64,000 nucleotides of DNA. Origin: Escherichia coli. Lineage in GTDB: Bacteria; Pseudomonadota; Gammaproteobacteria; Enterobacterales; Enterobacteriaceae. Below are positions 2,952 through 50,647 of this stretch, piece after piece. Each line of letters opens with the position of its first letter. The first letter of the stretch is position 1. Under the pieces are notes generated by a model, which was not told where the DNA came from, did not search any database, and saw only the letters and a program-made list of their open reading frames with translations. Location of the stretch: the NCBI GenBank assembly GCA_025336685.1, contig GCA_025336685.1_4717.1; one strand, written 5' to 3'. The position numbers and the translations under genes are program-made.

Positions 2952-2963
2952 ACTATGTTTGCT

Positions 2964-5584: not shown

Positions 5585-5596
5585 ATAAACTCCTCC

Positions 5597-5623
5597 GATG
5601 GAGGGTGCCGAGCACCCTCCATC
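5597..5623 (-). promoter_or_regulatory. stable hairpin (11-bp stem GATGGAGGGTG / CACCCTCCATC) abutting the terminase RBS
   Basis: Perfect inverted repeat; on the minus-strand transcript it sits directly 5' of the GGAGGAG SD of terL, between the 579 aa gene and terL. Confidence 0.4.
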
Positions 5624-5634
5624 GTTGTATTACC

Positions 5635-10893: not shown

Positions 10894-10974
10894 ATGTAAT
10901 TCCTTTATTACGGCATATAAGAAAACGGGTTAAGCACACAGATTTACGCATAATTGTAATTTTTTACGTTATGC

Positions 10975-11010
10975 CTATGACATTGTGTCACGTGTGCAAT
11001 TATGTCATAC
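10975..11010 (+). promoter_or_regulatory. inverted repeat TATGACAT-N18-ATGTCATA with central CACGTG, 27 nt upstream of sheath ATG
   Basis: Read directly in the divergent intergenic region 10894..11036. Confidence 0.3.
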
Positions 11011-11036
11011 AATTTCCTTAAATTAAGGAGAGTTCC

Positions 11037-13109: not shown

Positions 13110-13124
13110 TGAGAGGAGTCCATA

Positions 13125-14015
13125 ATGCGTCCTGATAATACCCTACTCGGTGAACAGGGTGTTGGTGCTCTTAGCAACGCGGCTATGGTCGATATTCGTG
13201 CAGGTGCCCAAAACGGGTACATCAGCAATATCGGTACGTACGTTGCTAACGCCAACTACATTCCGAACCAAATGTTCTGTCTCCTGCTGGAGGCACCACG
13301 TGGTTTCAACTATCTACCTAACCCGGATGTACAGATTGGTTATCTGAAGGCGCTGGTAGAAGAGGTTGCGCATTCGATTACCGGTCTGCAACGCGGATTG
13401 GAAGTTGAATTCGTTAGCGTCCCGGTTTCTGGTTCCGGTGAAATCCAGGAAGAAGTCTCTGACGTTAAACGTCCTCGCTCTAACCCGACTTTCGGGATCT
13501 ATGAGAAAGAAGGTCGTTCCGTTAGTTACTTCCTGGAACAATGGATCACGTATCTGTTGATGGATCCGGATGCCAAATATCCGATGTTGTCGTCTATCGT
13601 ATCCACCGGTGGTCCAACCGACCTGCTGGCGGATTATCGTAGCGCAACAATGCTGTTCGTTGAGCCAGACCGTCAACACAAGAAAGTGGTTAACGCCTGG
13701 CTGTGCACGAACATGATGCCTCACGGTACCGGTGACTGGACATCACGTCGTAACAAGAACGATGCGCCAAACGTGGTAGAATTGAGCATTCAGTTCACTG
13801 CGTTAACACAGACCAACTACGGCGTGCGTGCTTTTGCACAACGTCTGCTGGATAAGATGAACCTGCTTAAAGTGAACCCGGATTTCCGTCCGGCTTATCT
13901 GAGCGACATCGATCCTGCTGTGGCAGCGCAGAAGGTTGGCTACACCTTCGACTTTGATAACAGCGATACCTTTGAGGTACCGAACGCTTATCAAAACGTA
14001 ACACCTCGCGTGTAA
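13125..14015 (+). CDS. putative tail tube protein
   Basis: 296 aa ORF immediately downstream of the putative sheath; GAGAGGAG SD 7 nt upstream; strong terminator after the stop. Confidence 0.45.
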   Translation: MRPDNTLLGEQGVGALSNAAMVDIRAGAQNGYISNIGTYVANANYIPNQMFCLLLEAPRGFNYLPNPDVQIGYLKALVEEVAHSITGLQRGLEVEFVSVPVSGSGEIQEEVSDVKRPRSNPTFGIYEKEGRSVSYFLEQWITYLLMDPDAKYPMLSSIVSTGGPTDLLADYRSATMLFVEPDRQHKKVVNAWLCTNMMPHGTGDWTSRRNKNDAPNVVELSIQFTALTQTNYGVRAFAQRLLDKMNLLKVNPDFRPAYLSDIDPAVAAQKVGYTFDFDNSDTFEVPNAYQNVTPRV

Positions 14016-14040
14016 CGTAAAAAAAAAGCATATTAACCTC

Positions 14041-14090
14041 CCTTCCTTCCCCGGCCTTGATGGCTAGGGAAGGAAGGTTTATGGTTTATT
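14041..14090. terminator. bidirectional intrinsic terminator (stem CCTTCCTTCCC / GGGAAGGAAGG, loop CGGCCTTGATGGCTA, then TTTATGGTTTATTT; A9 run on the other side)
   Basis: Read directly; sits between convergent genes 13125..14015 (+) and 14090..14629 (-). Confidence 0.75.
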
Positions 14091-14629
14091 TACTGTTTGT
14101 TCTTAGCTTCGCGAATGAAAATAACGTCAGGATATTCTTGAGATTCAATGAATTCAGGATTACGATAACGACGAATATGACGCATCGCCGTACAGGCAAG
14201 TTTGTAAAGATGTTCCTCCTCACGTTGCGTTAATAACATCAGCTGTGTGTCTGGAATCACGAATGGAAGTCTTTCATTCACATATTCCCGGAGGTCATCG
14301 AGATCATCATGATGAATACCCTCTGAGAGTTTATATAACGCTTCCAGCAGTTCTAATCCGCCAAACTGGTAACTTCCTATTGTCGTCTTAAACAATGCGC
14401 CAGAACGCGTGGTGGATGCTCTATCGGCAACATCGTACTGTTCCAACACATATCCGTAGACCATGCTACGTCGATCCAGTGTATCTGTAACGAGATTACG
14501 CCATCGTTCCAGTCTTTTGAGCGCCTTGTCGATAGAGTAAACGATCATGCCGTGCTCATCTAACTCTTCTGCGATACCCATTAGTTCGGTGTTGTTCGGT
14601 TTTGCTGCGCCGATAAGAAAAACACTCAT
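14090..14629 (-). CDS. hypothetical protein (179 aa)
   Basis: ORF track; 1-nt overlap with upstream DUF488-like gene. Confidence 0.5.
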   Translation of the reverse strand: MSVFLIGAAKPNNTELMGIAEELDEHGMIVYSIDKALKRLERWRNLVTDTLDRRSMVYGYVLEQYDVADRASTTRSGALFKTTIGSYQFGGLELLEALYKLSEGIHHDDLDDLREYVNERLPFVIPDTQLMLLTQREEEHLYKLACTAMRHIRRYRNPEFIESQEYPDVIFIREAKNKQ

Positions 14630-18462: not shown

Positions 18463-19173
18463 TCACCCCCTCAGAATCGCTTCTGTTTCGCTGATCGTAT
18501 CCGCAGGATAAACCAAACTACTGTCGATTGCGTTATTCACGTAACCACCCATTAAGTTGGTGATGGTGTTTGTACCACTATCGATAATGTTTCGTAATCC
18601 GATGTCGATGGCTTTTAAGGTGCTGCGTTCCTCATCCGAAAGTAAACGCCACGCTCGACGACGATCGTTGGGGTCACGTGTGGTGATAGAAGCCAGAACA
18701 GAATAGATGCTGCTGTCTGCGTTCAGTTTAACACCCGCCAATTTCGCTGACGTGTAGAGCAGCTGATATTTTTCTTTTTCGGTATACCACCATGGCACTT
18801 TACCGAGCGTATAGATCTCGTTATACATCAGCCATGGGAAAGAGTTTCGCATCACGACATCGGTTGACACCAACACCGTGTCGCCGGGAAGAAATACAAA
18901 TTCGTAAAACGGCTGACCATCCATGGTAATCTCACGGATGTCAGATGGGTCGATATGGAGCTGAGTCAATGCGTGGCTGACACCATACTGACCATCGGGA
19001 AGAATAATCGGGCAGCACGCACAAACCCGGTTCTCACTCCCGATGATAGATAAACCCAATCCCTCGTAACGGACGGGCGTCAGAATCGAACACCCGCCAC
19101 GAGTAACAACAGATTTATCTTCTTGTATGTCCCAGTCCGCAAGCACCGCAGCACCGTTGCGGACAAGCGCCAT
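18463..19173 (-). CDS. hypothetical protein (236 aa)
   Basis: ORF track; tightly packed with neighbours. Confidence 0.5.
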   Translation of the reverse strand: MALVRNGAAVLADWDIQEDKSVVTRGGCSILTPVRYEGLGLSIIGSENRVCACCPIILPDGQYGVSHALTQLHIDPSDIREITMDGQPFYEFVFLPGDTVLVSTDVVMRNSFPWLMYNEIYTLGKVPWWYTEKEKYQLLYTSAKLAGVKLNADSSIYSVLASITTRDPNDRRRAWRLLSDEERSTLKAIDIGLRNIIDSGTNTITNLMGGYVNNAIDSSLVYPADTISETEAILRG

Positions 19174-21005: not shown

Positions 21006-21040
21006 GAGCAGGGGCATGAAGCCCCCTGCTCTTATTTAGC
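21006..21040 (-). terminator. hairpin terminator (GAGCAGGGGC ... GCCCCCTGCTC) with T-rich tail on minus strand
   Basis: Read directly; immediately downstream of the minus-strand gene 21032..22255. Confidence 0.5.
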
Positions 21041-22255
21041 GTCGTTAAAGTAAATATCAACAGCTCGTTCCGTTGCGTAGAGGAGACCAAGATTCACAGT
21101 CCCAACCACTTCCGGTGAACCGATGATACGGTTAGCGATACTGGTGCCACTGAAGATAGCATCAAGGGTGTGCCCGTCTTCGGTTTTGTTCACACCATGA
21201 CCCACGGAAGAGACAACGGATTTCGCTTGTGCTGCGAAGGTACCCTTATCACCCATCCCCGCACCAAGGTCGTAACGCATGAAAATACGGATGGCGATCT
21301 GGTTCTCGCCTAACGGATTACCGTCTATTCTCACGTTACTGTTGTTGATACGCCCCGTCGTTGCTTCATTGAGTTTCAGTTCCTTGACGCGTTTAGCTCG
21401 CGCTTTATCTGCGTCACCGACGAGCGCCGCCATGGTTTCACTCATATCCTCAATCTGAGCGCGGTACAGCACATCGATCTGTACAACTTCACCATGAACG
21501 TCAGCACGTGGGTTATACTGACTCATACGACGTAATGCTTCAACGGCTTCCTGACTCTCATCACTCAGATCAGTTGCGATCGGTTCTTCCAGTGTTGCAA
21601 GAATAGTTCGAGGTTCAACATGATCGCCGATTTTTACGAGACCACGAATGTTGAGATGGGCGTCAACAATGAGCGTGCGGCTCTTAATCGATGGTGTTAC
21701 GAGACGATCGGCAAGATTGTCGAAGATATACGAACTGTCCTCGTGAGTCTCTGGAATATCCAGAATACCGACAAGAGACAGAACACCTGCGCGCCAAACA
21801 ACCTGACCTGGGTTCCACCAGTCGCGTTTAAAATAAAGACGATGGAAAACTACCACATCTTGATCCTTAACGCGATCCCCAACTTTATAATCGGTAATGA
21901 GGTCATGCGGATAATACTTACCTGGTCCTTTCCCGATTATCGTACCGAGTTGGAAAACCTCTTCTCCTAACTCTGGATCATCGTATTGTATCGTAAGCGC
22001 AGTTTTGGTGACCTTCTTCACAACACCATCGCCTTGGGCGGCAGCTGCGAAGAGTTTACCAACGCGATGCGCGATAACGGTCTCGCCACCAGTACGCCAT
22101 GGTTGTACATCGTAACCTTCAGCAGCAATCATGCGGTTGTGTTGGATGCCTATAAATACGAGACGCTTTGGCGGAATCCAGCAAAATACATTTACTGTGC
22201 GTCCGGATTGTTCAGATAAGGTCGTTAATCTTATCCCGGAGGCGATGATAGGCAC
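21032..22255 (-). CDS. putative RNA polymerase beta-like subunit fragment (middle segment)
   Basis: 407 aa; GDKGTFAAQAKSVV resembles beta GDKxAGRHGNKGV and a following G-T-x-x-D-x-I segment resembles beta PVDIVLNPLGVPSRMNIGQ (weak, by eye); GTG start preceded by GGGAGG SD. Confidence 0.3.
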   Translation of the reverse strand: MPIIASGIRLTTLSEQSGRTVNVFCWIPPKRLVFIGIQHNRMIAAEGYDVQPWRTGGETVIAHRVGKLFAAAAQGDGVVKKVTKTALTIQYDDPELGEEVFQLGTIIGKGPGKYYPHDLITDYKVGDRVKDQDVVVFHRLYFKRDWWNPGQVVWRAGVLSLVGILDIPETHEDSSYIFDNLADRLVTPSIKSRTLIVDAHLNIRGLVKIGDHVEPRTILATLEEPIATDLSDESQEAVEALRRMSQYNPRADVHGEVVQIDVLYRAQIEDMSETMAALVGDADKARAKRVKELKLNEATTGRINNSNVRIDGNPLGENQIAIRIFMRYDLGAGMGDKGTFAAQAKSVVSSVGHGVNKTEDGHTLDAIFSGTSIANRIIGSPEVVGTVNLGLLYATERAVDIYFNDAK

Positions 22256-22483
22256 ACCGCCTCCCGCTTACGCTCTCACGTAAGAGCAGACTATATCACA
22301 TCTCGTCTTAGGCTTGTTTTCACAAGTCAAACGGTGCTTCTTCAGCACCTCAACGAGAGTTCACTTCTTCCCAGCGCATCCAGCGCCATTCTCTTATCCA
22401 AGGAGAATGCCTCACTCGAGGGGTACAGGGGGATGAATCCCTTAGTCGTTGAACCGTCACCCTAGAACGTTTCACAACGATCC
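22256..22483 (-). ncRNA. structured non-coding region between HNH gene and beta-like fragment (possible group I intron 3' portion)
   Basis: 228 nt with stops in all frames of interest; on the minus-strand transcript at least four short hairpins (GGUGCU-GAAGAA-GCACC, CUUGU-GAAAA-ACAAG, CUUACG-UGAGAG-CGUAAG, CAUUCUC-N-GAGAAUG); catalytic-core elements not identified. Confidence 0.2.
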
Positions 22484-23695
22484 TTAGGCGATTGGCTGCG
22501 GATTACCCTTGGCCTGCGGACCACGAACTTTTGTCGCGGTCAACTCTTCATTTTTAAAGCCTGCTTTACGAGCAATACGTCTCGCTTCTCGCACGTCTAA
22601 CGTTTCCGTTTCCGCTTTGGCTGAAGGCAGCATTGGGCGTCCTCGCAATTCAATGAATCTCGTCCATACGTCACCGTATAAACGGACCCGCTCTTTGTAA
22701 ACAGAATAGTAAATATAACGTTTTCCGTCAGGGAATTTAGTCATCCCATCGGACTTCAAACGGTAATTGAGTAACGTAGTAGATATACCCATTTCTTCGG
22801 CGCAATCAACGGCTGAAAGGTACAATAGCGGTACATCATTTTCAGGAATGACGACAATAGCACGTTTGTTGGTTGTCTTCTCCAACTCCAGGATACTATC
22901 TTCGACTTCCCGCCACGGCGTCTCATCAGTAACCCATTTAACTTGATAACAGCCATTAACGACAGGTTGGTTCTTGTCGTTAACGTACATCGACGCAGTG
23001 GGTAACTTAACACCAATGTGATTAGCGAATTCAGTCAATGATTCGAAAAGATGAATCTCTTTTGTTATCGTTGACCTTGCAATCACGCCCTTACTCCCCG
23101 TATCCGTCAACGTTGCTAACTCGTATTTGGTAGGAATACGCCACGGTTCATCGCCGTAATCTTTGCGGTACTGCTTACGTTCAGGAAACGCTCGCTGTTT
23201 ACCTCTATAGACACGATGATGAATGAAGTCGATATTCACACCAAGATCGCGTGCCGCTTCCGTCATGGATGGATATCTAGTTACAACACCGGTGTCAACA
23301 TCACGAACCTGAATAGGTTTACCGTAAGCAGCAATAGAACGTTTACGCATGTTCATAATGCGGGCATGCTGATTGTTCTCTTTCTGTGTAACCCATTCAA
23401 GATTGTCATTCTCTGTGTTACCGTCGGGATCAAGGTAGTTATTAAGTCTGTTGCCGTCCTTGTGGTTCACATGGAGCAAATGCGCATCATCGATGTTACG
23501 GAACGTTAACATTAGAAGTCTATGCATGGAACGGTAAACCAATGTTCCATCGTGACCTCGAAACGAATAACGATAATACCCAGCAATGATGATGGGCAAA
23601 TATTCAAACTTCGATTCCTTGTTACGCAATGTTCCATCTATGGATATCTCCAGGAACGGGAATTCCGGTACGGTCTTAAATACCTTCTCACTCAT
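22484..23695 (-). CDS. HNH homing endonuclease with NUMOD/IENR-like DNA-binding repeats
   Basis: 403 aa; HNH motif HHVNHKDGNRLNNYLDPDGNTENDNLEWVTQKENNQHA; three helix-turn-helix-like repeats (YPSMTEAARDLGVN, FESLTEFANHIGVK, YLSAVDCAEEMGIS); AGAGGA SD; own promoter-like motif upstream. Confidence 0.85.
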   Translation of the reverse strand: MSEKVFKTVPEFPFLEISIDGTLRNKESKFEYLPIIIAGYYRYSFRGHDGTLVYRSMHRLLMLTFRNIDDAHLLHVNHKDGNRLNNYLDPDGNTENDNLEWVTQKENNQHARIMNMRKRSIAAYGKPIQVRDVDTGVVTRYPSMTEAARDLGVNIDFIHHRVYRGKQRAFPERKQYRKDYGDEPWRIPTKYELATLTDTGSKGVIARSTITKEIHLFESLTEFANHIGVKLPTASMYVNDKNQPVVNGCYQVKWVTDETPWREVEDSILELEKTTNKRAIVVIPENDVPLLYLSAVDCAEEMGISTTLLNYRLKSDGMTKFPDGKRYIYYSVYKERVRLYGDVWTRFIELRGRPMLPSAKAETETLDVREARRIARKAGFKNEELTATKVRGPQAKGNPQPIA

Positions 23696-23735
23696 TGACT
23701 ATATTCCTCTTGTGCAGTGATATTAACTACACTTT

Positions 23736-23744
23736 CGTAATATA
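23736..23744 (-). promoter_or_regulatory. promoter-like motif GGNCTATATTACC (copy 2)
   Basis: Exact CTATATTAC on minus strand about 40 nt upstream of the HNH ATG, in the 75-nt gap after the 1069 aa ORF. Confidence 0.35.
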
Positions 23745-23770
23745 GCCTTAATTCTGTTTACATTGAAGCC

Positions 23771-26700
23771 TTAATCATCTCTATCAGCAGCAGGTACTGC
23801 AAGTGCTGATGTACTCATTATTGACGAGCTACCATCCGTTTTCTCGTCGTAGGGTTTCGTTTCACCGTATACAGACACAATGTTTGCGTTAGGTGCGAGG
23901 TAAGCAGAAATACCTACATCCCCACTATCCTTCGTACCTTCGGATACAACACCAATGTCCGACTTGTCGTATTCACGATCGCGTGCGCGTCGAAGCGATG
24001 TCTTTGAACGCCCCCCGATACCGGTCATCGTTGCTTCTTCACCCTGCTTGATATCCAGCATCGGGTTGGTTTCATCGATCACGATGGAAGCGCTGTCGTC
24101 GAGAATTTGGTTCCAGACACTCACTGGACTGATTGAGATTTTCTGGCGGTTTCCTTGACTGCTGTTCTCGTTTTGACGAATAGCGCTAACCAGGTCCTTA
24201 TACACCAGTTCGGCGAACTTATCGTACGTTTTAAAACGTTGGTAGTTCACATCGTTCGTGTTAGGTGCCCAGTCATCCAGAAGCAGTTCAACAGCACGCA
24301 GTAACAACATGGCGAAATCGGTAGGTTCTCCCATGTTCTGTAGCAACGTACGGCTCACCGGATCGATGAAAAGACGCTCCATGAGTTCAAGTTCGCGTAA
24401 ATGGCGAACCTTAAGTCCAGCACCATCGACAACGTTAAAATAGATATCTCGATTGTCAAAAGCACCGCGAGCGTAACCGATGTAGTTACGGTACTCGTTG
24501 AACCCACCCAACAGCAACGTCGTCATGCGATCGTCTTTACTGAAGATCAAACTTTCGTCGTCAAAGCTCACCGCGAATTCATCGGGTGCTAGACCCATAC
24601 GAGAGCCGCGAGGTACCGTACGATAGTTCGCTTTAAGGTGTTCTAATAACGGGGTAAGCCCACCCAGATAACTTAGAACAACACCGACCGGAATACGTAC
24701 ACCCATGAATTCAAGATCGGCGGCTTCGATCGGCATCTTAGCCGCATTGATACCGAAGAAATCAGGGAACGTCCCTACAGGTGTTGGTGTTTGTCCTGAC
24801 TGACAGATATAGAGCTGATTGCGTTCATCGATTGCTAAGAATTCACCCAACGTGTTACGTGCAAACGTCAGGAGCCCTTCGGCTAACTGTTCGTTGAACC
24901 GATCTTCCCCAATGAACTCCGGCAATGTCTTTATATCGAGACGTATATCCCAATCAGCGAATTGGATTTGGGTATAGTTGCGTGCAAGCACTGCGAAGTA
25001 ATACGGGACTTTGACAGCCGGATCAAAGACGTTACCGCGTTTTAACGTGGTTAAGGGTGAGGACTTATCGTAATACATCGCCGTAAGTTGACGTGTTAGC
25101 CAACGACCCGCATTATTAACGACGCGCTCTGAACGTTTAACAAACACCTTACCGTAGGCGGTACTCAATGCAACTTCGGATGACGATACCTTTCTAATAG
25201 GTTTATCGACGCGTTGTTTACGCATCCGGTACTTGATGCCGTTAACGACATAAATGCCGTCCTTACGAACCTTCGGTAACATCACCGGGAACGTGGTCGG
25301 GACACCGCCTACGGGGGCCAGTTTAATCGTGATGACTTGATAATCCCCCATCACGTCAACAACATCTTCGACTTTATATCCCGTGACTGGGTAACCTGCC
25401 TGCTGTACCGCAACAACAGCAGCTGCGATGTCCTTTTGCATTACGTGTTCGACGTAATGTTTATCCCACACCGCAAGCGTCGATTTACATAAGCTCTTAT
25501 CGACGATAACGTCCGCTTCCGGCATAACCTTTGCGGGAGCTAATTTCGCGGCTTTTGGTTTAACTTCAACATACTCAGCAAGTGTTAATCCAGAACCGTC
25601 GGGTGCTTCGATTTCATGGATGGCGTCAGCGTTACGCATCGCTGCTTTATATTGGACGCCACTTAACTGCCCCGCATCCGCCAGATCGCCCGCGCGTACC
25701 AACACCGCATCCGATAACGACTGAATATACTCACCGTGTGTTTTTGGTAACGTTGTCGCGTCAAAGACATCAACCTTTTCTTCTTCGGTATCGTCAGTAA
25801 CGACTTCGAAGAGATCGTCGGTAATGTCCTGATCTTCATCAGGTTGGAAATCCGGTTGTACTTCTACCCCGGGTACTTCACGGACATCTTCGAACGTGCG
25901 TTCTACAACGGCGTTCCATGCATCAGCGTCATCGTCTTCATCCGACCCACCGACCAACTCCGCTTCTAACTCATCGGGGTCAAGAACAGTGGCCAGATCC
26001 TCACCGTTAGGAAGCACGACGTCACGATCGTCGTACTCCGCATCCGGGTTGTCGGTAAGAATATCTCGCTCTTGACGAAGAACCTGTTCCTCTTCTTGTT
26101 TCTGTTCTTCTTCATTCGCGCTCTGCGACCACAAACGTGTTACCGCCATCATCCAACGACGTTGGAAGGTTTCAAGTGTCGTTTTGTCGAGTTCTTCCCC
26201 TTCCTTTACAAGCCCGGTACGCCATTCCTCCAGCAGGCCGAGATTCAACGTAAAGAAGTACACACCGTCTGTAAATACAACGTTAAGCTTATCCAGCGTG
26301 GCCCTGTCTAACGAAGCCATCGTGCTGTTCTCACGATCGGTTCCCAACCAGCGGAAGAAGTCAAAGAACGACAGCTCCTCCGGTGTGGCGAAATTCATGA
26401 GGTTGTTACGGGTCGGTGCCTGTTGTGTGGTACGCATCAACGAAATCTTCGGCAATGTTGACGGTAAACGGAACAACAAAAAGTGTTGACGATCGCTTTG
26501 TTGTGCGATTTCGTTGGCTTTCGACCAAATTGTTTTACGTACGTTGAACCATTCATCATACCAACGGGTGAGCGTTGGACGATAGATGTACATGTGGTTA
26601 AGATGCGCGTAGTTAGCAACGATCTGAGCGTTGATGTTTTTCTCCACCGTACTTAGATCGGTAACCAAACGAAAACGACGATGCGATGCACGATAATCCA

Positions 26701-26980
26701 ATTTCGCTCGTGGAAGTTGGAATCGTTGATCGCGTCGAGGTGCGCCTTGTTTGGTTGCGAGATCATCAGCAAACGAAATCCATAGTTGAGCATTTTCTTT
26801 ACTCAGCATGTATTCGTTTTCTGGAGGACCTATCAATGAAGGATCCGTTGCGGTGTAATGATAGACAGCATAACGCGGCAGCTGCAATAGCTGCACTAAA
26901 CGTAATCTTGGTGATAGTAGCTCTTGGTAGCGTCTGACACCGAACTGTCGGTAGTAATCAAGGTATTTAAGTTTTGCCAT
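23771..26980 (-). CDS. putative RNA polymerase beta-like subunit, N-terminal fragment
   Basis: 1069 aa; by-eye matches to bacterial beta: [17 protein letters not shown] vs [33 protein letters not shown] vs [34 protein letters not shown] vs YGFLETPYRKVTDG near the C-terminus. Confidence 0.45.
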   Translation of the reverse strand: [1069 protein letters not shown]

Positions 26981-26983
26981 GGG

Positions 26984-28630
26984 TTAGGCTCCACGAGGTC
27001 CCGTTAAGTTGCGTAATAGGAACGCAACCGTATCGTAACCAATATCAATGTTGAATTTATTTTTACCACTTACCCAGAAAGCTCGCTTCTTGTGCGAGTT
27101 GGTAATTTCGTCAATGGCTTCCATGGAATAAAGAACGTTAACCGAGACCGTATCACCATCAAAGTCCCCGCCAAGTCCGGCGAGGTATGGGGCAGGGACA
27201 ATAGTCGTTTCTACGAACGAAGCATTAGGTAACCAGTCAGGGTATTCCCATGCGATAAATCGTTCATCCGTTATTGGTTCCCAGTTACTATCCAGTTCGG
27301 TTTTCGGTTTTGCGGCGACGGTTGTACGCGCATAACAGGTTAACGGGATAACGGATTGCATACCCGATACCGGATAACGTGTTACCATTGCAGCCAGGTT
27401 ATTCCAGTACTTATATCCGGCGATGTACACTAATTCGGTATACGTGATGGGGTGAACATCCGCACCAGGTTTATTCAACATTTCTGGGGGTAATTCACTC
27501 ATACCACGGAACAGTCGAAACGAATCATTGTTCACATAGACGAGGCAAAGATAACGTCCATTAACCATGATAGGTTCGTTACGCACGCCTGGATCGCTTA
27601 AGGTGTTCAATAAACGTTCTATTCCGTCCCATGTCGTAAAGTCATCGATGGTGTCTGGATCAAGCGTGACGCGTTCACGTTCCATCGTTTCGGTATCGAT
27701 AAGTTCAACTTCTGTAACATCACGGACAAATATTTCCTGCAAAATCCCCGTACGTAACGCATGTTGCGTCACGGGTAGGGCGGCTTTGCTCATCTGGTAT
27801 AACCCTAACTGAACTGCAGTACAGGAAGGCTGGTTGGGCGATCCTAGTACCTCCGTTGTGGGGTTAATTGCCGAAATAACGTTACGGGTTGAGTTCCAAA
27901 CACGACGTGAGCCGAACTTCCCTTGAAAGATCCCTTTCTTACCTTGGAACATATCCAACAACAAAGCGTAGATATCGTTAAATGTTCTCTGTAAGCTCCA
28001 GCGTTGGCCGTCGTAAACGGGATCGGAATAATCTTTTAATCCATCGGGGACGGTGTTAGAAATTGCAAGGAAACGACGATACAACTCCGTGATTTCTTGC
28101 TCGCTTTCATACCCGCCTTCTTTTACTTCTATTTCACGTAAGCCCGCAGGTAAAACCAGTAAGTGACGGGTCATCGCTTTGAACATGTTCTCTTCGACAA
28201 CTTTAATTCGTAGCTCTCGTTGAGCTGAACCCGTTGAAACGAACTTGATATCCGCGACGTGTTGTGCAAAGAACCCGTACCCTGTCTGTCCTGTTAACGC
28301 ATCAGACGCAACGAAATCGCGTTGTTCAGGATCCCACCGAGCGTACGCCTTCCCCGACATGATATCACCATAGAGGTGTTTTAATCGAATGAGGCGGTCG
28401 TAAATGACAGGATGCAGGATTTCAACTTTGCATTCAATCACCGCAAATCGACGGTCTCGATCTTCACTACCTGCACTACCAAAGATGGTGTAAGAATAGA
28501 AACCATCATCGTGGAAATTACCGGTGCTTGGGTCACGAATGCTCATGCTCGTGATCTTGGGGAGAAAACGTAACTGTTGTTTATCGAGGTGTAAAATACT
28601 AATATTAAACGGCTCTCTGACTTTAGCCAT
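26984..28630 (-). CDS. RNA polymerase beta'-like subunit, N-terminal fragment
   Basis: Catalytic motif GDFDGDTVSVNV (beta' NADFDGDQMAVHV) near C-terminus; QGKFGSRRVWNSTRNVISAINP resembles beta' GKRVDYSGRSVIVVGP; ORF track starts at 28672 but ATG at 28630 has an AGAGGAG SD. Confidence 0.65.
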   Translation of the reverse strand: MAKVREPFNISILHLDKQQLRFLPKITSMSIRDPSTGNFHDDGFYSYTIFGSAGSEDRDRRFAVIECKVEILHPVIYDRLIRLKHLYGDIMSGKAYARWDPEQRDFVASDALTGQTGYGFFAQHVADIKFVSTGSAQRELRIKVVEENMFKAMTRHLLVLPAGLREIEVKEGGYESEQEITELYRRFLAISNTVPDGLKDYSDPVYDGQRWSLQRTFNDIYALLLDMFQGKKGIFQGKFGSRRVWNSTRNVISAINPTTEVLGSPNQPSCTAVQLGLYQMSKAALPVTQHALRTGILQEIFVRDVTEVELIDTETMERERVTLDPDTIDDFTTWDGIERLLNTLSDPGVRNEPIMVNGRYLCLVYVNNDSFRLFRGMSELPPEMLNKPGADVHPITYTELVYIAGYKYWNNLAAMVTRYPVSGMQSVIPLTCYARTTVAAKPKTELDSNWEPITDERFIAWEYPDWLPNASFVETTIVPAPYLAGLGGDFDGDTVSVNVLYSMEAIDEITNSHKKRAFWVSGKNKFNIDIGYDTVAFLLRNLTGPRGA

Positions 28631-28782
28631 GGAGACACTCCTCTTTACCACCACCGGCTGCGGCGGTATCATCTGAACACACGAGAGACGTAATGGGTGA
28701 TGGCGTCACCCATCGCTTCCTTGCTTGAGGCGAGGAAGTTATTAGGTTACGTACCTGCCTGATTTTATCAGGTGGGCGATGT

Positions 28783-31479
28783 GTGAAGTTACGCTTCAAC
28801 ATTATCAATGCCGAAGGTAAACTTCGTGCATCACGTTCCAACGTAACATGGGAACGTATCGAACTGGAGGTATACATGGTAGATAAAACCCGTGTTGAGG
28901 GTGATGATAATTGGGATAACTGGGATGATGACTTCTCCCTGGATCTCGATTTTAACGAACCCAAAGACGATCGTAAACCGATAACACGCTTTGCGGTAGG
29001 AGCGGTTAAAGGTGCCGCTGAGGATCTTACTTCCTACGAAAGAATGAAGGAGATCGCCAGAAACGCATTGCCTAAGGGCTATAGCGACGGTATGGATCTT
29101 ATCGATTCCGCCGTCGGATCCACGAAGGAACTATACAATGAAGCCGTTCGTGATGTTCTTCCTAAGGTCCAAAGCTCAAAACGGTTAGCTGCACAACTGA
29201 CCAAGAAATACCGTGCGAGCATGCCCGATTTCTCGAAGAAAATTCTTGAGCAATGGGAGCGAGAAGCCAAGGAAGAAGACGAACGTAAACAAGCTGAAGA
29301 AACCCTTCGTCAACGCATGGCGAGCGCGGGGGACGATGAGGTCGCCCGCAAGGTTGCCGAGGCGTTAGGTGAATCAGCAAACCAAAGCGCGGATCAGTTT
29401 GCCGAGCAGCAAGCAAAAGAAAGTATCCGTGACGATATCGCTGACAAACGGTACGCTGTAACCAACAAACAAATGAGTGCGATGCAAGAAGGCGTCGCCA
29501 AGATGGTTGGTTTCAACAATGAATTCGCTGCGCGCTACATGCGTAAAAGCCTGGAACTGAAATATCGTTCCTTAGCGATTCAACGCGCAAGTTTCGATCA
29601 GCATAAAAAGTTAGCCGAAGTCTATATCGGTTTATTACAAAACATCCAGAAGAATACGGCTTTACCTGATGCGGCTAAAGCAAAAATGTCGGAAGAATTC
29701 CGCCGTAGCGCGTACCAACGTTTCTTTGGTAATGCGTTAGATGCGATGAGTTCTTTCGAGAACCGTTTCTTTGCCGATGTTAAGAAAAACCTTGCCACCA
29801 ACGCATTAGGTGCTTTAAAAGGCGTCGTGTCTGGCGCAAACGATGCGTTATACGGTTTAAACGAAGCACGTGACTCGATGTCCATGATGGATGGGATGGG
29901 GTCAGAAGGCGATATTAAGGAAATGCAAGGAAAGATGTTGGGTCAGTTCATTGGCTCAACTGTCGCACCATGGATGGCTAATAAAGGCAGGATGGCGTTA
30001 CGCGATTTAGCAAAACGTCACCCCAATGCTAAATTCGCTAGCGCGTTAAAAGCCGTGGATCAAGGTGGTGAAGCAGCCGCTTACACAACGCGCAATATCG
30101 GTAAACTGCTCCAGGAAGATATTCGTAAGAACGAATTCAATCTTAGCGATCCGTTTTACAAGCAATTGTTACGCGGCGCAGGGCGTTGGGCGTTCAACAT
30201 GGACAGCGGACGTAACTTCCGCGTGATGAACGACTCCGCTGAAACATTGGCTGAGCAAACGTCTTTCGACGGTTTAACCTACCGCAGCATCAACGAGGTT
30301 ATTCCCGGCTTTCTTGCGCGCATTCTGAAAAGCAGTGAGGGTATCCGCACTGGAAACAGCGATCCTGACTACGAGGTCTATGACGGCATCAGCGGGCAAT
30401 TCGTGTCTCAGCGCACGCGTGAACAAAGCGTCAACGACACGCTGTTTAACAAACGTTCGTTTGGTTATTACGCAAGCCGTTTCAATGAGGTTATCTCGGT
30501 CATCGATCCCGATAAACAATTATCGGAAAAAGCCAGAAAGGCGCTGGCTAAGCAGTTGGCACGAGATAGCGACGCAAATATCGCATTCGACCCGGCCCGT
30601 TTTACGGATGAAAGCAACTTCGATCGTAGTATTGACCGCGACGCTATTAAGGAACTTTCCACGTACTTTCGTGATCGTTACGGTATTCGTGACGATATCA
30701 ACGATAAGGGCGAACGTCATCAGGTCGTTGGAAACCGCGGGCAATATTACACGGAACGTAACCGAGCCGATCTTCGTTACGGAAATCTGAAATCTTTACA
30801 ACCGGATATCCAGCGTAACCTTAACCTGCTGAAACGTACTGGTGACGTCCAATATCTGGAACGGATTGGGATTGTAACGAGAAATAGCGACGGAAGCTAC
30901 TCGGTTAATCACGATCGGTATTTCTCTGAAATTGATCAATACATCGACCGACCGGAGTACGCCGAACGTAATGATGTTAATACGCGATTAACCGCTCAGG
31001 AAACAAGAGCGCTGGCGCTGGGTTATCGTGACGCAAAACCATCAGTTGATGACGTGCAAAATGCGGGTCTGCCGAACATCGATCGTAAGGCTGTTGGAAC
31101 AGTAACCGTTGATGAAAACATCGGCTACGATAAATGGTGGAACGACACGGGTGTTATCACCACATCGCTTGAAGAACAGAATCGAGCGTGGCAAGAGCTT
31201 TATCTCGAGGCCTTGTCTGAAGCATCCGAACAACGTGTTGAAATGCTTGCGTTACTGAAAGCCATTTCTGAGAAAGACTGGTCTAATAACGTTTCACTGG
31301 ATGGCGAAGATGTACCTGAAGGTACGGCACCCATTTCATTTATCGATCGTGCCAAACAAAAACTCGGCGCACGCAACCTCTTTAAAGGCGGTCGTAATCT
31401 CCTCTGGAAAGGAATTAAAAATACCGCACGGTTGGGTGTTAAAGGTGCACGCTGGGAGTGCAGAACACACACTAGGTAG
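28783..31479 (+). CDS. large virion/tail-associated protein, helical, 898 aa (possible N-terminal part of a giant tail protein)
   Basis: Long ORF beginning at GTG (first in-frame ATG at 28876); same strand as, and 347 nt upstream of, the lysozyme-domain protein. Confidence 0.45.
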   Translation: MKLRFNIINAEGKLRASRSNVTWERIELEVYMVDKTRVEGDDNWDNWDDDFSLDLDFNEPKDDRKPITRFAVGAVKGAAEDLTSYERMKEIARNALPKGYSDGMDLIDSAVGSTKELYNEAVRDVLPKVQSSKRLAAQLTKKYRASMPDFSKKILEQWEREAKEEDERKQAEETLRQRMASAGDDEVARKVAEALGESANQSADQFAEQQAKESIRDDIADKRYAVTNKQMSAMQEGVAKMVGFNNEFAARYMRKSLELKYRSLAIQRASFDQHKKLAEVYIGLLQNIQKNTALPDAAKAKMSEEFRRSAYQRFFGNALDAMSSFENRFFADVKKNLATNALGALKGVVSGANDALYGLNEARDSMSMMDGMGSEGDIKEMQGKMLGQFIGSTVAPWMANKGRMALRDLAKRHPNAKFASALKAVDQGGEAAAYTTRNIGKLLQEDIRKNEFNLSDPFYKQLLRGAGRWAFNMDSGRNFRVMNDSAETLAEQTSFDGLTYRSINEVIPGFLARILKSSEGIRTGNSDPDYEVYDGISGQFVSQRTREQSVNDTLFNKRSFGYYASRFNEVISVIDPDKQLSEKARKALAKQLARDSDANIAFDPARFTDESNFDRSIDRDAIKELSTYFRDRYGIRDDINDKGERHQVVGNRGQYYTERNRADLRYGNLKSLQPDIQRNLNLLKRTGDVQYLERIGIVTRNSDGSYSVNHDRYFSEIDQYIDRPEYAERNDVNTRLTAQETRALALGYRDAKPSVDDVQNAGLPNIDRKAVGTVTVDENIGYDKWWNDTGVITTSLEEQNRAWQELYLEALSEASEQRVEMLALLKAISEKDWSNNVSLDGEDVPEGTAPISFIDRAKQKLGARNLFKGGRNLLWKGIKNTARLGVKGARWECRTHTR

Positions 31480-31826
31480 TTTGGTAAATTCCGGTCGACG
31501 CATTATCAACTTCAACCGATTCGTGTTCGGCGCATTATCCAAGGTTGATCAAGTTCCGTTTGACATTTATGTTAAAAGTCAATACGCATACTGGCTGCCA
31601 AACTTCGTCGGTTATACTTCGACGAAGCGACAGGAAAAACCATAAAACGAATGAAGGATATCAAAGGCCCACTCGTTGATGCTGATGGAAACATCGTAAT
31701 CAGCAGCAACGAGGATATCGAGAAAAGGGTTGGTCACTCGCGCCGGTCGTGCCTTTGAAATTCAGGACTTAAAGCGTGGGCACATGAAGGTCTTAATGGA
31801 ATCACGACAGTCTTATTCTGCCACGG

Positions 31827-34800
31827 ATGTTAAAACGCGGTGCGGTTGAGATCTACAAACAGCTCGACAAAACGCCCGACGTTTACGTCAAGGGAGAATC
31901 AACACCTCGTCTATTATCCATGGTGTTAGCGGCAGGTGGGTATTTCCGTCGCTCCGACGGACAAACCGTCAAAAATCTTGAAGACATCGATGGTGATGTT
32001 GTTGATGCACAAGGTAACGTCGTACTTACGCTTGCCGACATGCAGAAAGGACTCGTCGATAAATACGGTAAAGCGATTCGTCGTTTAAAAGAAAAGCTCA
32101 TCAACTTCGGTGTAAAAGCTTTTACGTTACCGTTAACCTTACTACGCAAGACAAAGGACATCCTTAAAACCCTTCCAGGTAAAACCGTTAACGGCCTACG
32201 ACGGATGGGATTAAATTTCCAATCACCTGACGCATTATTGGTGGGAACAACGTCGAGCATGGTAGATCGTCTCGATGCTATTTACCAGCTCCTTGACCAA
32301 CGTATGCCTGGTGGTGATAGGGATTATCGCGATTGGAATGGAGATGGCGTTCGAGAAGGATCGTTGGAAGACCTGAAACGTAAGCGTGCAGCCAAGGAAA
32401 ACGGTAAGGATGACACTGGCAAAGATTCTAATAAAGGAGAAGAAAAGGAGAAGAAACGAGGATTACTCGGAAGCCTTTTCGATATGCTTGGCGACACCGC
32501 ATTAGGTAAACGCCTCATGGCGAGTCCGCTTGGAAAAATTCTAGGTGGTCTTGGAGCGGTGTTAAGCGGCGGTGCATCGTTAACCGGGTTGTTAGGCAAA
32601 GGCCTCATTAGTGGAACCGGCGCGCTGGTCAAGGGGGGACTAAGTGCGGCAGGATGGTTAGGACGTGGTGCGTTAATGGCGGGCGGGGCTGCATTGAACG
32701 CTGTTGGTGGGTTATCGGGATTAGGTGCATTCCTCATCTCACCTGTTGGGCTTGCTATTGCTGGCGGTGCATTGGCTGCTTATGCAGGATGGAAGATCTA
32801 TCAGCATTTCGCTGAGAAGCCTGACCCGATGCAGAAGCTCCGTCTTATTGCATACGGTGCAAAAGGGGACGATAAAGACTTCAATAAGAAGCTGCTTGCG
32901 ACAGAAACATACCTCACCGACCATGTGGTTATGACTGGGGATACCATCGGATTCGATCCGAAAGCGGATTCTGAAAAGATTCTCGAAATCTGGGAATTGT
33001 CCCTGGAAGATTCCGACCGAATGAACGAATGGAAACGCTGGTATCTGCATCGTTTTATTCCTGTTTTCGCTCGTGCGTACAAACTCTGGAAAGAGCATAT
33101 GCCGGACGAGAAGAAATACATGGAAATGGATAAATATCCGAACGGTGAGAACAAGGTGAAATGGTCGGAAGCGTTTATCTGGCCTTCCGATAGTCCTGAC
33201 GGTCCGTATTACGTCGAAGCTAACCCGTTGGGTTCTTCTGGTGCGACGCGTTATATTGCTGGTCAAGACGTCAAAACCTTGATGCTGAAACAACTCGAAG
33301 CCATCAAGAAAGAGTACCAGAATCAGATCAAACAATACTCTCATGATGAGGCTATTGCTGATTGGTCACGGATGTCTGACACACAACGTAAATCCGTTGC
33401 GCCTAACGCATTACGTGGTCAGAAAGCGTCGTTACGTTTTAACGATAAGCGTTACAACAGTGCTGGCGCTAAAGGACGACAGAAGCTTGACGCAACCGCT
33501 GTTATTGAAAGCGTAGACCGTCGTGGTAGGAAATGGGTTGCTGGCGGATACATCGACGAACTCACCAGTCTCCGTGTTCGCGCGTACGGTATTAAGGTTC
33601 CGTTGTTAAGTCAGATAAAAGTGCTGATGGAACTCGAAGACGCTGTAGAACCTGGCGTAGTCGCTGAAGGTAAAGGGGTTAAATACGGTGGCGATCTTGT
33701 CGCGCTCTACAAGAAATTCGCGACGAAGTTCGGAAGAGACGTTAACAGCAAGCAGGATCAGGATATCTGGTTTGCTTGGATGAACAACCGTTTCCTACCC
33801 GTCTTTTTAACCTATTACCAACACGTTAGCGACATGGGTGGTCAAGGACTTCTGTCCGACATGGTACAGAACCTGAAAGACAGCCAACGTTGGGAAATCG
33901 GTGAAGCACTTGTCGCAACGCAATACCGTGATGAGAAAGGTGCACTCCAGCCTGTATGGTCCTGGAATAGTTGTGGTTTCTCCGGTACTGAAGCTAACAC
34001 CACCAGCAGTTCAACAAAGAGCCAACTCGATCTGTTAAAAGAATATGCGGATAAAGAGAAGGTTCGTGAGAAGAACGCGGAAGCATCGCAAGAGGACACC
34101 GATAAATTATCGAAGATCCAAGAGCTGATGATGAAGCAGGCTGGGTACGAGAAGAAAGACGGTGTCTGGCAGAAGAAATCACGCATTACCGGTGGGATGA
34201 GTAACGCCGAAGCGAATTACAACCCCAATGGGAATAGGGTAGGTGCAAGCAGCTTTACTGCTTCGGCTACTTCCAGTGCTGGGTTGGGGTCAACCGGCGA
34301 TCTTACCGGATTGCCTAACATGGGCTTACAGAAACCTGCAACGGGACCAGGTCCTGAAGCTGGACGTCGTGCGCTTGTTAAATCCGCTGTGAAACGCGGT
34401 ATTACCGATCCAATGGAAATGGCGATGTTCCTTGCAAACATCGAACATGAATCGGGGAACTACAGTCACGTACGTGAGGGGAACTATAAGACACCAGAGC
34501 GTCTTAAACAGGTCTTCCCTTACAAATTCCGTGATGTGCAGGATGCCGCACAGACGATCAGCATGGGACCAGAAGCGGTATTCGAACGCGTGTATGGTAA
34601 TCGTAAAGACTTAGGGAACACGCAGAAAGGAGACGGGGCGAAGTATTTAGGACGCGGCTTCATTCAGGTTACCGGTAAAGCTAACTACGCTCGTCTGTCC
34701 AAGACCTTGAATAAGGATCTTGTCAGCGATCCGACATACCTGGAAACGCCGGAAGGTGCGGCGGAAGGTAGTGTCGCGTGGTGGCTCAACCGAGGTAACG

Positions 34801-35534
34801 TATTACGCGATCCCGCAAAACGGGGTGACGTACGCCAAGTTCGTTATCTGGTTAACGGTGGTTATAACGGATTACGTGACGTTGAACAGCGCTCTGCTTA
34901 TTGGATTCAGGCGGCTAAGAACGGCACCCTGAAGAAAATGATGGACGAGTTATCGGGGTCAACATCAGACGATCAAGCTGAAGGACCGACCACCGCCGAA
35001 CAGGTGAAGAATGAAGCGGCCCAAGAGGCGAACGGAACACCGACGGTAAGCAACGATCCGCAAGCCCCGGCATCTTCTACCACCCCTGAAGCTAAACCGT
35101 CTGCGGCTGCCGGTACGGCTCCAGCACCCGGAGAAGCATCACCAACGCCTGTAAGTTTCGAGACAGCAAAAGCTACGGCAGGACAACCGACATCAACTCC
35201 GGCACTTAGCGATTTGCCGTCAAACCCTGGTGCAAATCGAGGGATATCGGTTCCGAATACGCCTGCACAGGTCGCGCAGTCTGCGACACAAACATCGGCT
35301 GCGAGTGAGAACTTCTACGGTAGCGCAGGTGAAATTCTCCGACAGCAGCTGACCACGCAGCAGAACATCGAGAAGAACACCGGTAGAACGAATGAACTTA
35401 TTTCGGAATTAATCCAAGCCGTTAAGGGTTCTTCTATCGGTAAGGGTTCTGCAAGTCCTTCTCAACAACAGGCGATGTCGCTACCTAATCGTCCGCAAGG
35501 AATCTCTCCAACACGGACAAGGTACGCGCAGTAG
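31827..35534 (+). CDS. tape-measure-like virion protein with GH19-type lysozyme domain
   Basis: 1235 aa; Gly-rich hydrophobic repeats (GGLGAVLSGGASLTGLLGKGL..., about 32520..32760); lysozyme/chitinase-19-like motifs NIEHESGNYS and YLGRGFIQVTGKANY (about 34380..34920); Ala/Pro/Ser/Thr-rich C-terminal tail. Confidence 0.65.
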   Translation: MLKRGAVEIYKQLDKTPDVYVKGESTPRLLSMVLAAGGYFRRSDGQTVKNLEDIDGDVVDAQGNVVLTLADMQKGLVDKYGKAIRRLKEKLINFGVKAFTLPLTLLRKTKDILKTLPGKTVNGLRRMGLNFQSPDALLVGTTSSMVDRLDAIYQLLDQRMPGGDRDYRDWNGDGVREGSLEDLKRKRAAKENGKDDTGKDSNKGEEKEKKRGLLGSLFDMLGDTALGKRLMASPLGKILGGLGAVLSGGASLTGLLGKGLISGTGALVKGGLSAAGWLGRGALMAGGAALNAVGGLSGLGAFLISPVGLAIAGGALAAYAGWKIYQHFAEKPDPMQKLRLIAYGAKGDDKDFNKKLLATETYLTDHVVMTGDTIGFDPKADSEKILEIWELSLEDSDRMNEWKRWYLHRFIPVFARAYKLWKEHMPDEKKYMEMDKYPNGENKVKWSEAFIWPSDSPDGPYYVEANPLGSSGATRYIAGQDVKTLMLKQLEAIKKEYQNQIKQYSHDEAIADWSRMSDTQRKSVAPNALRGQKASLRFNDKRYNSAGAKGRQKLDATAVIESVDRRGRKWVAGGYIDELTSLRVRAYGIKVPLLSQIKVLMELEDAVEPGVVAEGKGVKYGGDLVALYKKFATKFGRDVNSKQDQDIWFAWMNNRFLPVFLTYYQHVSDMGGQGLLSDMVQNLKDSQRWEIGEALVATQYRDEKGALQPVWSWNSCGFSGTEANTTSSSTKSQLDLLKEYADKEKVREKNAEASQEDTDKLSKIQELMMKQAGYEKKDGVWQKKSRITGGMSNAEANYNPNGNRVGASSFTASATSSAGLGSTGDLTGLPNMGLQKPATGPGPEAGRRALVKSAVKRGITDPMEMAMFLANIEHESGNYSHVREGNYKTPERLKQVFPYKFRDVQDAAQTISMGPEAVFERVYGNRKDLGNTQKGDGAKYLGRGFIQVTGKANYARLSKTLNKDLVSDPTYLETPEGAAEGSVAWWLNRGNVLRDPAKRGDVRQVRYLVNGGYNGLRDVEQRSAYWIQAAKNGTLKKMMDELSGSTSDDQAEGPTTAEQVKNEAAQEANGTPTVSNDPQAPASSTTPEAKPSAAAGTAPAPGEASPTPVSFETAKATAGQPTSTPALSDLPSNPGANRGISVPNTPAQVAQSATQTSAASENFYGSAGEILRQQLTTQQNIEKNTGRTNELISELIQAVKGSSIGKGSASPSQQQAMSLPNRPQGISPTRTRYAQ

Positions 35535-50640: not shown

Positions 50641-50647
50641 GTCAAGC

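Follow-up and report, generated by a model that had tools for sequence, protein, structure and literature searches.

The window, by which we mean the whole 64-kb stretch of DNA that was analyzed, carries at 26984..28630 on the minus strand the coding sequence of a predicted virion RNA polymerase (vRNAP) β′ N-terminal subunit, hereafter β′-N, an orthologue of Goslar gp205 (exons 1 and 2), ΦPA3 gene 212, and phiKZ gp180. The ORF listing opens this frame at the first ATG (26984..28672; 562 aa). The ATG at 28630 is the better start, because the strong Shine-Dalgarno sequence AAGAGGAG (28638..28645, minus strand) lies 7 nt 5′ of it, no Shine-Dalgarno sequence was found upstream of the in-frame ATG at 28672, and the start codon annotated in Goslar falls at the equivalent base. 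The product is therefore 548 aa long, and the coordinates given in the original prediction, with 28630 as their upper end, stand.

The three aspartates of the DFDGD loop hold the catalytic Mg2+ in all multisubunit RNA polymerases (RNAPs). In β′-N, where GGDFDGDTVSVNV is present, the codons GAC TTT GAT GGT GAT (27152..27166, minus strand) encode this predicted Mg2+-binding aspartate triad of β′ as residues 489 to 493 (GGDFDGD spans residues 487 to 493, and residues 485 to 500 include GLGGDFDGDTVSV). Both the loop and the clamp-side regions of β′ (VLPAGLRE... and GKKGIFQGKFGSRRVWNSTRNVIS) lie within the protein. D489, D491, G492, and D493 show no variation among 28 homologues (38 to 70% identity), and the 81 of 1,647 bases at which the gene differs from its Goslar counterpart, 77 of them at third codon positions, change no amino acid. 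Given this invariance and the wholly synonymous divergence, DFDGD on sequence evidence is not a chance motif. The ORF ends soon after it, as had been remarked from the sequence; the stop codon lies 55 residues on. The lengths of homologues from the top 120 database clusters fall mostly between 535 and 580 aa (range, 398 to 752), and these proteins end at about the same point, as do the 286 phage records, out of 310, that span 80% or more of the query.

Pfam β′ models were silent on the β′-N ORF, for which the only match was noise (Microcin, E 0.084); the β′ assignment therefore rests on a custom profile, PHROGs, and fold comparison. The family profile, built from 28 sequences, matched the β′-N chain of the AR9 non-virion RNAP (nvRNAP) in the PDB (domain E 1e-13; full E 3e-16). 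This alignment spans profile positions 36 to 254, far from DFDGD, so that similarity to β′ is found well outside the short motifs. The profile matched 78 PDB sequences at E ≤ 0.01, and all 60 that were listed come from RNAP large subunits, under the name β′ or γ in nearly every case. Single-sequence phmmer with β′-N likewise returned the AR9 nvRNAP β′ chain (7s00_d/7s01_d; E 5e-4), together with plastid and cyanobacterial β′/γ chains, and PHROG 2986 ("RNA polymerase beta subunit") matched over the whole length of the protein (E 3e-179). When an AlphaFold model of β′-N (mean pLDDT, 80) was queried through Foldseek, the 50 best PDB matches were without exception RNAP largest-subunit chains (E 2.5e-14 to 1e-10), comprising bacterial, plastid, and cyanobacterial β′/γ as well as chains from phage AR9 and ASFV. 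The TM-scores of 0.3 to 0.36 are low and the global domain arrangement is not reproduced, because the domains of the model are arranged otherwise than in the assembled enzyme. By profile and by modeled fold, the 548-aa ORF is confirmed as a genuine β′ fragment, as its DFDGD motif had first suggested.

The vRNAP β gene follows in the same orientation, its ATG 3 nt after the β′-N stop codon. It comprises two exons on the minus strand: exon 1 (23774..26980) has 1,069 codons, ends in ...AADRDD, and matches PHROG 3148 positions 2 to 1050 of 1424, and exon 2 (21032..22171) has 379 codons plus a stop and matches positions 1051 to 1420. Directly after the β stop codon lies an intrinsic-terminator-like hairpin (21006..21031, minus strand; 9 bp, 7 of them G-C), at the position equivalent to an annotated terminator in Goslar, which likely forms the end of the β′-N/β transcription unit. 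Matches to sigma-70-type promoters around the β′-N locus were no commoner than in shuffled sequence (9 versus 11.1 ± 3.6), and no promoter is therefore proposed.

Divergent from β′-N is a giant lysozyme-domain virion/tail gene (28783..35534, plus strand), a homologue of Goslar gp204 (2,252 aa) and the giant virion protein gene that had been recognized beside β′-N. Its domain is of lysozyme/chitinase type (Glyco_hydro_19, E 0.0012; PHROG endolysin, E 2e-53), and Pfam gave nothing significant for its N-terminal ORF or for the β ORF. In the window the gene is frame-broken into ORFs of 898 and 1,235 aa, with a cluster of seven small indels at 31457..31814. Shared biology was rejected as an explanation, the breaks being absent from the other five of the six sequences compared; since they are unique to the window, the likelier cause is a fault of sequencing or assembly, or a defective genome. 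Two genes lie farther off on the minus strand. The product of 42114..42788 (224 aa; PHROG 3233, E 1e-65), a homologue of Goslar gp196 with 99% identity, is predicted to be another subunit of the vRNAP; that of 18463..19173 (236 aa) is 100% identical to its homologue gp210, which the virion proteome of Goslar counts among the vRNAP subunits. For the spliced β protein and for both of these homologues, PDB searches from single sequences gave nothing meaningful, so the RNAP assignment of all three rests on PHROGs and the literature.

The identification of the source as a phiKZ-like phage was borne out. The window is about 95% DNA identical (range, 93 to 95%) to Escherichia phage Goslar with full collinearity over ∼63 kb, corresponding to Goslar 186181..237305 followed by 1..12533. 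Goslar is placed in the Chimalliviridae and is a characterized nucleus-forming phage whose nucleus has been documented. The original prediction had extended, by family association, to a phage nucleus while recognizing no chimallin or PhuZ gene, and our searches of the 64-kb window for these two genes likewise found neither (tblastn E 9.6 and 7.2, respectively). In Goslar, chimallin (gp246, 171003-172898) and PhuZ (gp234, 180856-181836) lie 13 kb and 4 kb before the position equivalent to the start of the window (186181); the window would thus be expected to lack both, and their absence carries no information on the rest of the genome. Because RNAPs of this kind also occur in some jumbo phages that build no nucleus, the nucleus cannot be read from the RNAP alone; what sustains it is the near-identity to nucleus-forming Goslar. 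This near-identity supports the view that the window is part of a Goslar-like nucleus-forming chimallivirus of E. coli.

The closest known relative of β′-N is Goslar gp205 (HOV27_gp205/QBO64022), whose two exons are 100% identical to it over all 548 residues and whose genome position, neighbors, and orientation are the same. The Goslar gene is intron interrupted, whereas the window allele is continuous. The Pseudomonas chimallivirus vRNAP β′-N proteins (phiKZ gp180, ΦPA3 gene 212, and 201φ2-1 gp275), from another genus and host, are 38 to 39% identical to it over 97% of its length (38.8% for ΦPA3 gene 212) and occupy the same place, with the giant lysozyme-domain gene on one side and the β gene (gp178 in phiKZ) on the other. 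The nearest solved structure is the AR9 nvRNAP β′-N (PDB 7S00/7S01, chain d), likewise split shortly after the D(F/Y)DGD loop and homologous over the clamp-side regions and the motif; it differs in that the enzyme is a non-virion one, from a phage not known to build a nucleus, and in that the chain is ∼14% identical, shorter (448 aa), and reads DYDGD. Cyanobacterial γ (RpoC1) and plastid β′ (rpoC1), among the top sequence and fold matches, represent a natural β′ split in which the N-terminal polypeptide ends after NADFDGD. They are longer (620 to 690 aa) and belong to cellular enzymes with α, ω, and σ partners, and their split arose independently of that in the phage protein.

Five vRNAP subunits, gp78, gp196, gp205, gp207, and gp210, are listed from mass spectrometry of Goslar virions (bioRxiv 10.64898/2026.04.21.720040), and phiKZ gp180 and gp178, the orthologue of β′-N and the β gene, respectively, are vRNAP subunits as well. 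The order giant lysozyme gene (divergent), β′-N, β is common to the window, Goslar, and ΦPA3, in which it corresponds to genes 213/212/211/210/209, whose annotations cite similarity to phiKZ gp180 and gp178. The resemblance to the virion-RNAP neighborhood of phiKZ, noted at the outset, is therefore upheld by gene order and by the detection of Goslar gp205 in virions. We are close to certain that the product of 26984..28630 is the N-terminal half, with the catalytic motif, of the split β′ of the virion-packaged RNAP of a Goslar-like phage. The phiKZ gp180 group is itself virion packaged; for β′-N of the window, virion association, assembly, and activity are predicted by transfer from Goslar and phiKZ. 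The rest of β′ would be encoded by a separate gene outside the window, for which the family points to a homologue of Goslar gp78 as the candidate. By analogy, β′-N, β, the gp196 and gp210 homologues, and β′-C would assemble late in infection and be packaged into the capsid; injected with the DNA, the vRNAP would then transcribe chimallin and other early genes without recourse to host RNAP, before the phage nucleus forms.

Three other explanations for the gene were considered and rejected. Chimalliviruses encode two β/β′ sets, and the best solved-structure match of β′-N is a non-virion enzyme, so that β′-N could belong to the second, non-virion RNAP, which works inside the phage nucleus. Such membership is very improbable: the identical Goslar gp205 is one of the five vRNAP subunits that were detected in virions, synteny links the locus to the phiKZ gp180/gp178 vRNAP subunit genes, and a β′-like protein of Goslar, gp247, gave only noise against the window (E 0.07). 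The gp247 gene adjoins chimallin, outside the window, and its product is not among the listed vRNAP subunits. That AR9 nvRNAP stood out as the best match is probably explained by the PDB searches having returned no vRNAP chain match.

A second explanation, that β′-N is a decaying or nonfunctional β′ remnant truncated after its motif, would account for the early stop and might be thought consistent with the broken frame of the neighboring giant gene. We give it almost no credence, since the divergence from Goslar (81 differences) is wholly synonymous, a strong Shine-Dalgarno sequence precedes the gene, homologues are of similar length with about the same end point, and the β′-N chain of AR9, part of an active enzyme of solved structure, ends a similar distance after its DYDGD. 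Equally implausible is a single-chain two-barrel polymerase that merely shares the loop. Enzymes of the YonO, crAss-like, and RNA-dependent types also have DxDGD-type motifs, but the β′ homology of β′-N covers over 200 residues on the N-terminal side of the motif, a separate β gene directly follows, and 548 aa is too short for both barrels. The N-terminal half of a vRNAP β′ is thus the reading that we retain.

The vRNAP genes of the window phage and Goslar differ in their introns. In the Goslar β′-N gene, a self-splicing group I intron of 2,045 nt (RF00028, 67.7 bits) that carries the HNH endonuclease gp206 separates D489 from F490. In the window the corresponding site (D|FDGD; junction 27164|27163, minus strand) is empty and the allele is uninterrupted; the codons around it read GGG GAC TTT GAT, versus GGT GAT|TTC GAC in Goslar. 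The converse holds for β, which has no intron in Goslar and is interrupted in the window after DD by a putative 1,602-nt group I intron (22172..23773, minus strand). A scan of the whole window at Rfam gathering thresholds found no matches, and this intron was seen only with an Rfam E-value threshold: its ribozyme core (22267..22709, minus strand) scores 49.4 bits against RF00028 (E 5e-11), for which the gathering score is 50. An ORF-less intron variant at the same β site in contig L008 scores 54.0 bits. Joining 23774 to 22171 yields a 1,448-aa β protein that aligns without gaps to the uninterrupted Goslar gp207 at 98.4% identity; the predicted junction reads GAT GAT CCA AAG, and the empty Goslar site GAC GAT GGA AAA CGT. 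The upstream exon ends in ...GAU and the intron in ...CCG, which fits a U before the 5′ splice site and a terminal G. Neither the β intron nor the ORF-less variant showed, on inspection by eye, a convincing guide sequence for P1 pairing with a U·G wobble, and the splice sites are therefore inferred from collinearity and the U(−1)/terminal-G rule.

Within the β intron lies an HNH/NUMOD1 homing-endonuclease ORF (22484..23695, minus strand; 403 aa), which runs 225 nt into the ribozyme core. It matches NUMOD1 (E 2.5e-8) and PHROG 59 "HNH endonuclease" (E 5e-38), with weak HNH_3 and I-TevI DNA-binding matches below the Pfam cutoffs. The closest known system for this intron, and not for β′-N, is the ΦPA3 gp210 intron (PMC11620839). 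The window element, a putative group I intron, shares with it an encoded HNH endonuclease and an insertion point immediately behind the conserved DD of β (the region of D675 in E. coli RpoB), and the endonucleases are 36% identical (E 3e-57). The window intron differs in that its core falls just under the Rfam cutoff and its ORF overlaps the core, and its nuclease and competition activities are putative.

Each of the two introns, that in Goslar β′ and that in window β, encodes an HNH endonuclease opposite an empty site in the other phage, and three allelic states occur in public reads: empty site, ORF-less intron, and intron with endonuclease. Interference competition has been shown one way, by ΦPA3 against ΦKZ (Birkholz et al., Science 2024, PMC11620839). 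We tentatively suggest, as a possibility that is more doubtful than probable, that Goslar and the window phage carry reciprocal mobile introns in their vRNAP genes and that, with both endonucleases active, coinfection of E. coli would lead to two-way homing or mutual interference competition. If so, the three allelic states would represent a homing cycle caught in a natural population.

The β′-N gene is real, correctly read, ordinary, and already well known. It marks the window as belonging to a Goslar-type chimallivirus and thereby predicts an injected RNAP, host-independent early transcription, and a protein-shelled nucleus, none of which is new. Two details are new: the β′-N allele that, relative to Goslar, lacks the intron, and the putative β-gene group I intron at the DD site that the ΦPA3 gp210 intron also occupies. 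The intron-less allele provides the true full-length 548-aa sequence, whereas the deposited Goslar entry is misannotated: its 502-aa protein continues into the intron, FDGD and the final 59 residues are missing from it, and exon 2 is left unannotated. The natural variation in the presence and absence of homing introns, located exactly at catalytic motifs in the two large subunits of the vRNAP, offers material for studying intron-mediated competition between jumbo phages, and if both endonucleases are active, E. coli and Goslar would provide a tractable model of homing in both directions or of mutual interference competition.

The minus-strand ORF carrying the DFDGD motif extends over 26984..28672 and encodes 562 aa when counted from its first ATG. 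No ribosome-binding site was found upstream of ATG 28672, and AAGAGGAG lies 7 nt upstream of ATG 28630 (minus strand), the base equivalent to the annotated start in Escherichia phage vB_EcoM_Goslar (NC_048170), a nucleus-forming jumbo phage. ATG 28630 is the biologically sensible start, yielding a 548-aa product (β′-N) that includes ...APYLAGLGGDFDGDTVSVNVLYS.... DFDGD is encoded at 27166..27152 (minus strand), and the stop codon follows 55 residues further on. The original prediction of an ORF at 26984-28630 that ends shortly after this motif is therefore confirmed, and is correct to the base. The β gene is co-oriented, its ATG lying 3 nt downstream of the β′-N stop, and the β′-N/β unit ends in a strong hairpin followed by a T-rich stretch (21031..21006, minus strand), where a terminator is annotated in Goslar.

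Pfam returned nothing for the β′-N protein. PHROG 2986 ("RNA polymerase beta subunit") matched it end to end (E 3e-179), and a single-sequence PDB search found the non-virion RNA polymerase (RNAP) β′ chain of phage AR9 (7S00/7S01 chain d; E about 5e-4) as well as plastid and cyanobacterial β′/γ. These alignments spanned the VLPAGLRE...ELYRR and GKKG...SRR...STRNVI regions, with the DFDGD loop aligned separately. With a family profile built from 28 homologs (38-70% identity), the AR9 match improved to E 3e-16; the main block aligned to AR9 covers positions 36-254, far from the DFDGD motif. All 60 sequences listed for the profile (the best 60 of 78 at E ≤ 0.01) were large-subunit chains of RNAP, and almost all of these bear the name β′ or γ. 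Foldseek comparison of an AlphaFold model (mean pLDDT 80) with the PDB likewise gave RNAP largest-subunit chains for all of the best 50 matches (bacterial, plastid, and cyanobacterial β′/γ, phage AR9, and ASFV), with AR9 at the top (E 2.5e-14), the naturally split β′/γ of plastids and cyanobacteria next, and bacterial β′ after them. The TM-scores were low (0.32-0.36), as expected for a multidomain fragment modeled outside its complex. The family alignment shows no variation at residues D489, D491, G492, and D493. These results agree in identifying a β′ protein, as had been proposed, and extend the similarity well beyond the short motifs. Like AR9 β′-N and cyanobacterial γ, the protein stands as its own polypeptide and terminates shortly beyond the aspartate loop.

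The predicted phiKZ-like phage was borne out by the whole window, which is collinear with Goslar 186181..237305 and then Goslar 1..12533 at 93-95% identity (94.8% DNA identity at the β′-N locus). Residues 1-489 of β′-N are 100% identical to Goslar gp205, and residues 490-548 are 100% identical to a second exon in Goslar. All 81 nucleotide differences from Goslar in the 1,647-nt gene are synonymous, implying very strong purifying selection. The window runs through from Goslar 237305 to position 1, and 54 nt (50608..50661) align to both ends of the linear Goslar record; the ends of that record thus mark an arbitrary cut, with a short overlap present twice, as would fit a circularly permuted genome. 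For the last 860 nt of the window (63139..64000), no phage record, Goslar included, gave a nucleotide match. This stretch codes for small ORFs on the minus strand (138 and 128 aa) within a block of small hypothetical genes and looks like a variable region.

Homologs of four of the five virion RNAP (vRNAP) subunit genes of Goslar are present in the window: β′-N, β (the gp207 homolog; joined exons 23774..26980 and 21032..22171), gp196 (42114..42788), and gp210 (18463..19173), all on the minus strand, the last two 99 to 100% identical to their Goslar counterparts. Gene order is as in Pseudomonas phage ΦPA3, with a giant lysozyme-domain gene divergent from β′-N and β directly downstream. In ΦPA3, the annotation of the counterparts (genes 213/212/211-209) points to similarity with phiKZ gp180 (β′-N) and gp178 (β), and phiKZ gp178, gp149, gp180, and gp80 are established vRNAP subunits. 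The resemblance to the phiKZ vRNAP neighborhood that had been proposed thus holds in the window and ΦPA3, and this synteny and annotation, with the established phiKZ subunits, identify the ORF as the gp180 ortholog and, very probably, a vRNAP subunit. Assignment of β′-N to a non-virion RNAP instead is disfavored, because the other β′-like gene of Goslar (gp247, beside chimallin) gave only a noise-level match against the window. The giant gene itself (28783..35534, plus strand) is broken into 898-aa and 1,235-aa ORFs. Seven small indels (+1, -7, -3, +3, +1, -1, and -1) within about 360 nt (31457..31814, plus strand) are unique to the window; over this stretch, Goslar and four metagenomic relatives are mutually consistent. 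The gene remains a single ORF of 2,252 to 2,282 aa in Goslar and in three relatives, those with contigs long enough to cover it. The break most probably reflects either an error of sequencing or assembly at this spot or a genome that is defective.

Goslar has 2,045 extra bases at the point equal to window 27164/27163 (NC_048170 211754..213798; positions 12360..14404 of the extracted Goslar locus L001), made up of a group I intron annotated there (RF00028, 67.7 bits) together with the HNH endonuclease gp206. The exon borders, GGC GGT GAT before and TTC GAC GGT GAT after, place the intron exactly between D and FDGD. As a consequence, the deposited gp205 (502 aa) continues into intron sequence and is missing FDGD along with 59 residues at the C terminus, and the 59-codon exon 2 is unannotated. 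The site is empty in the window and in six metagenomic contigs, with different synonymous codons (GGG GAC TTT GAY); exon 1 ends in GAT in every intron-containing allele examined. Pseudomonas phage T2P (93.4 bits) and Xanthomonas phage LucasX (56.8 bits) have group I introns at the same site. In Vibrio phage vB_pir03 the match is interrupted two codons further on, adjoining an endonuclease gene, and no match reached the Rfam gathering threshold. A second annotated group I intron of Goslar, with HNH endonuclease gp186, lies outside the window (Goslar 168235..170910; 8236..10911 of Goslar locus L006) in gp247, directly beside chimallin; both β′-type genes of Goslar therefore carry homing introns.

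Conversely placed, 1.6 kb inside the window's β gene is absent from Goslar (22170..23787). Exon 1 (23774..26980) ends ...AADRDD and exon 2 (21032..22171) begins PKRLVF...; joined, they give a gap-free 1,448-aa protein 98.4% identical to Goslar gp207, and the pieces match consecutive stretches of PHROG 3148 (positions 2-1050 and 1051-1420). Between them lies a probable group I intron of 1,602 nt (22172..23773, minus strand) after the conserved DD. Its ribozyme core (22267..22709, minus strand; E 5e-11) was missed by the default Rfam scan because it scores 49.4 bits, just under the cutoff of 50. A 403-aa HNH/NUMOD1 endonuclease ORF (22484..23695, minus strand) overlaps the core by about 225 nt and is 36% identical (E 3e-57) to the ΦPA3 intron endonuclease gp210, for which nicking of the phiKZ gp178 gene has been demonstrated at a site following the conserved DD, aligned with E. 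coli RpoB D675 (PMC11620839). The window's intron and the gp210 intron of ΦPA3 share one insertion site. We infer the exact splice sites to be 23774/23773 and 22172/22171; no convincing P1 guide pairing was found. In public Goslar-like contigs the DD site is empty (L007 and L009), holds an ORF-less 461-nt intron (contig L008, 11858..12318; 54.0 bits), or holds an intron with an endonuclease (L017 to L022); the identical endonuclease occurs in such an intron on at least 11 contigs, which come from separate sequencing runs. Intron lengths are 461, 1,583, and 1,602 nt across alleles. Intron-containing alleles have in common a distinct exon flank (G1070P and neighboring changes), and residues 1042-1076, which hold 7 of the 23 amino acid differences from Goslar β, look like a co-conversion tract.

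β′-N is already known: it belongs to a well-characterized family, a studied phage has the same amino acid sequence, and public data include the exact 548-aa protein as a cluster of 235 sequences. A 99%-identical copy (P0003) lies on a 238,276-bp NCBI contig labeled Salmonella enterica serovar Enteritidis, which suggests that this bacterial assembly includes the genome of a Goslar-like phage, through a carried or contaminating phage or a wider host range. Homing-endonuclease introns in jumbo-phage RNAP genes are likewise known (PMC11620839), and the reciprocal Goslar/window pattern, with recurrent use of the D/FDGD site, is a tidy extension of that picture and no new kind of system. That intron endonucleases set Goslar-like phages against one another in both directions in E. 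coli is a tentative reading that we consider rather unlikely.

Near-identity to Goslar makes a phage nucleus a safe prediction for this phage. [quoted passage not shown] Chimallin and PhuZ are absent from the 64-kb window, as had been noted (tblastn E 9.6 and 7.2); this is expected because both genes (171.0-172.9 kb and 180.9-181.8 kb in Goslar) lie upstream of the equivalent of the window start (186.2 kb). The interpretation of the ORF as part of a phage-encoded RNAP is supported. β′-N contains the N-terminal β′ regions together with the aspartate loop, which in every multisubunit RNAP binds the catalytic Mg2+. By analogy with its family, it would assemble with β, β′-C, and small subunits, be packaged in the capsid, and be injected along with the DNA, so that early genes would be transcribed without host RNAP before the chimallin shell forms.
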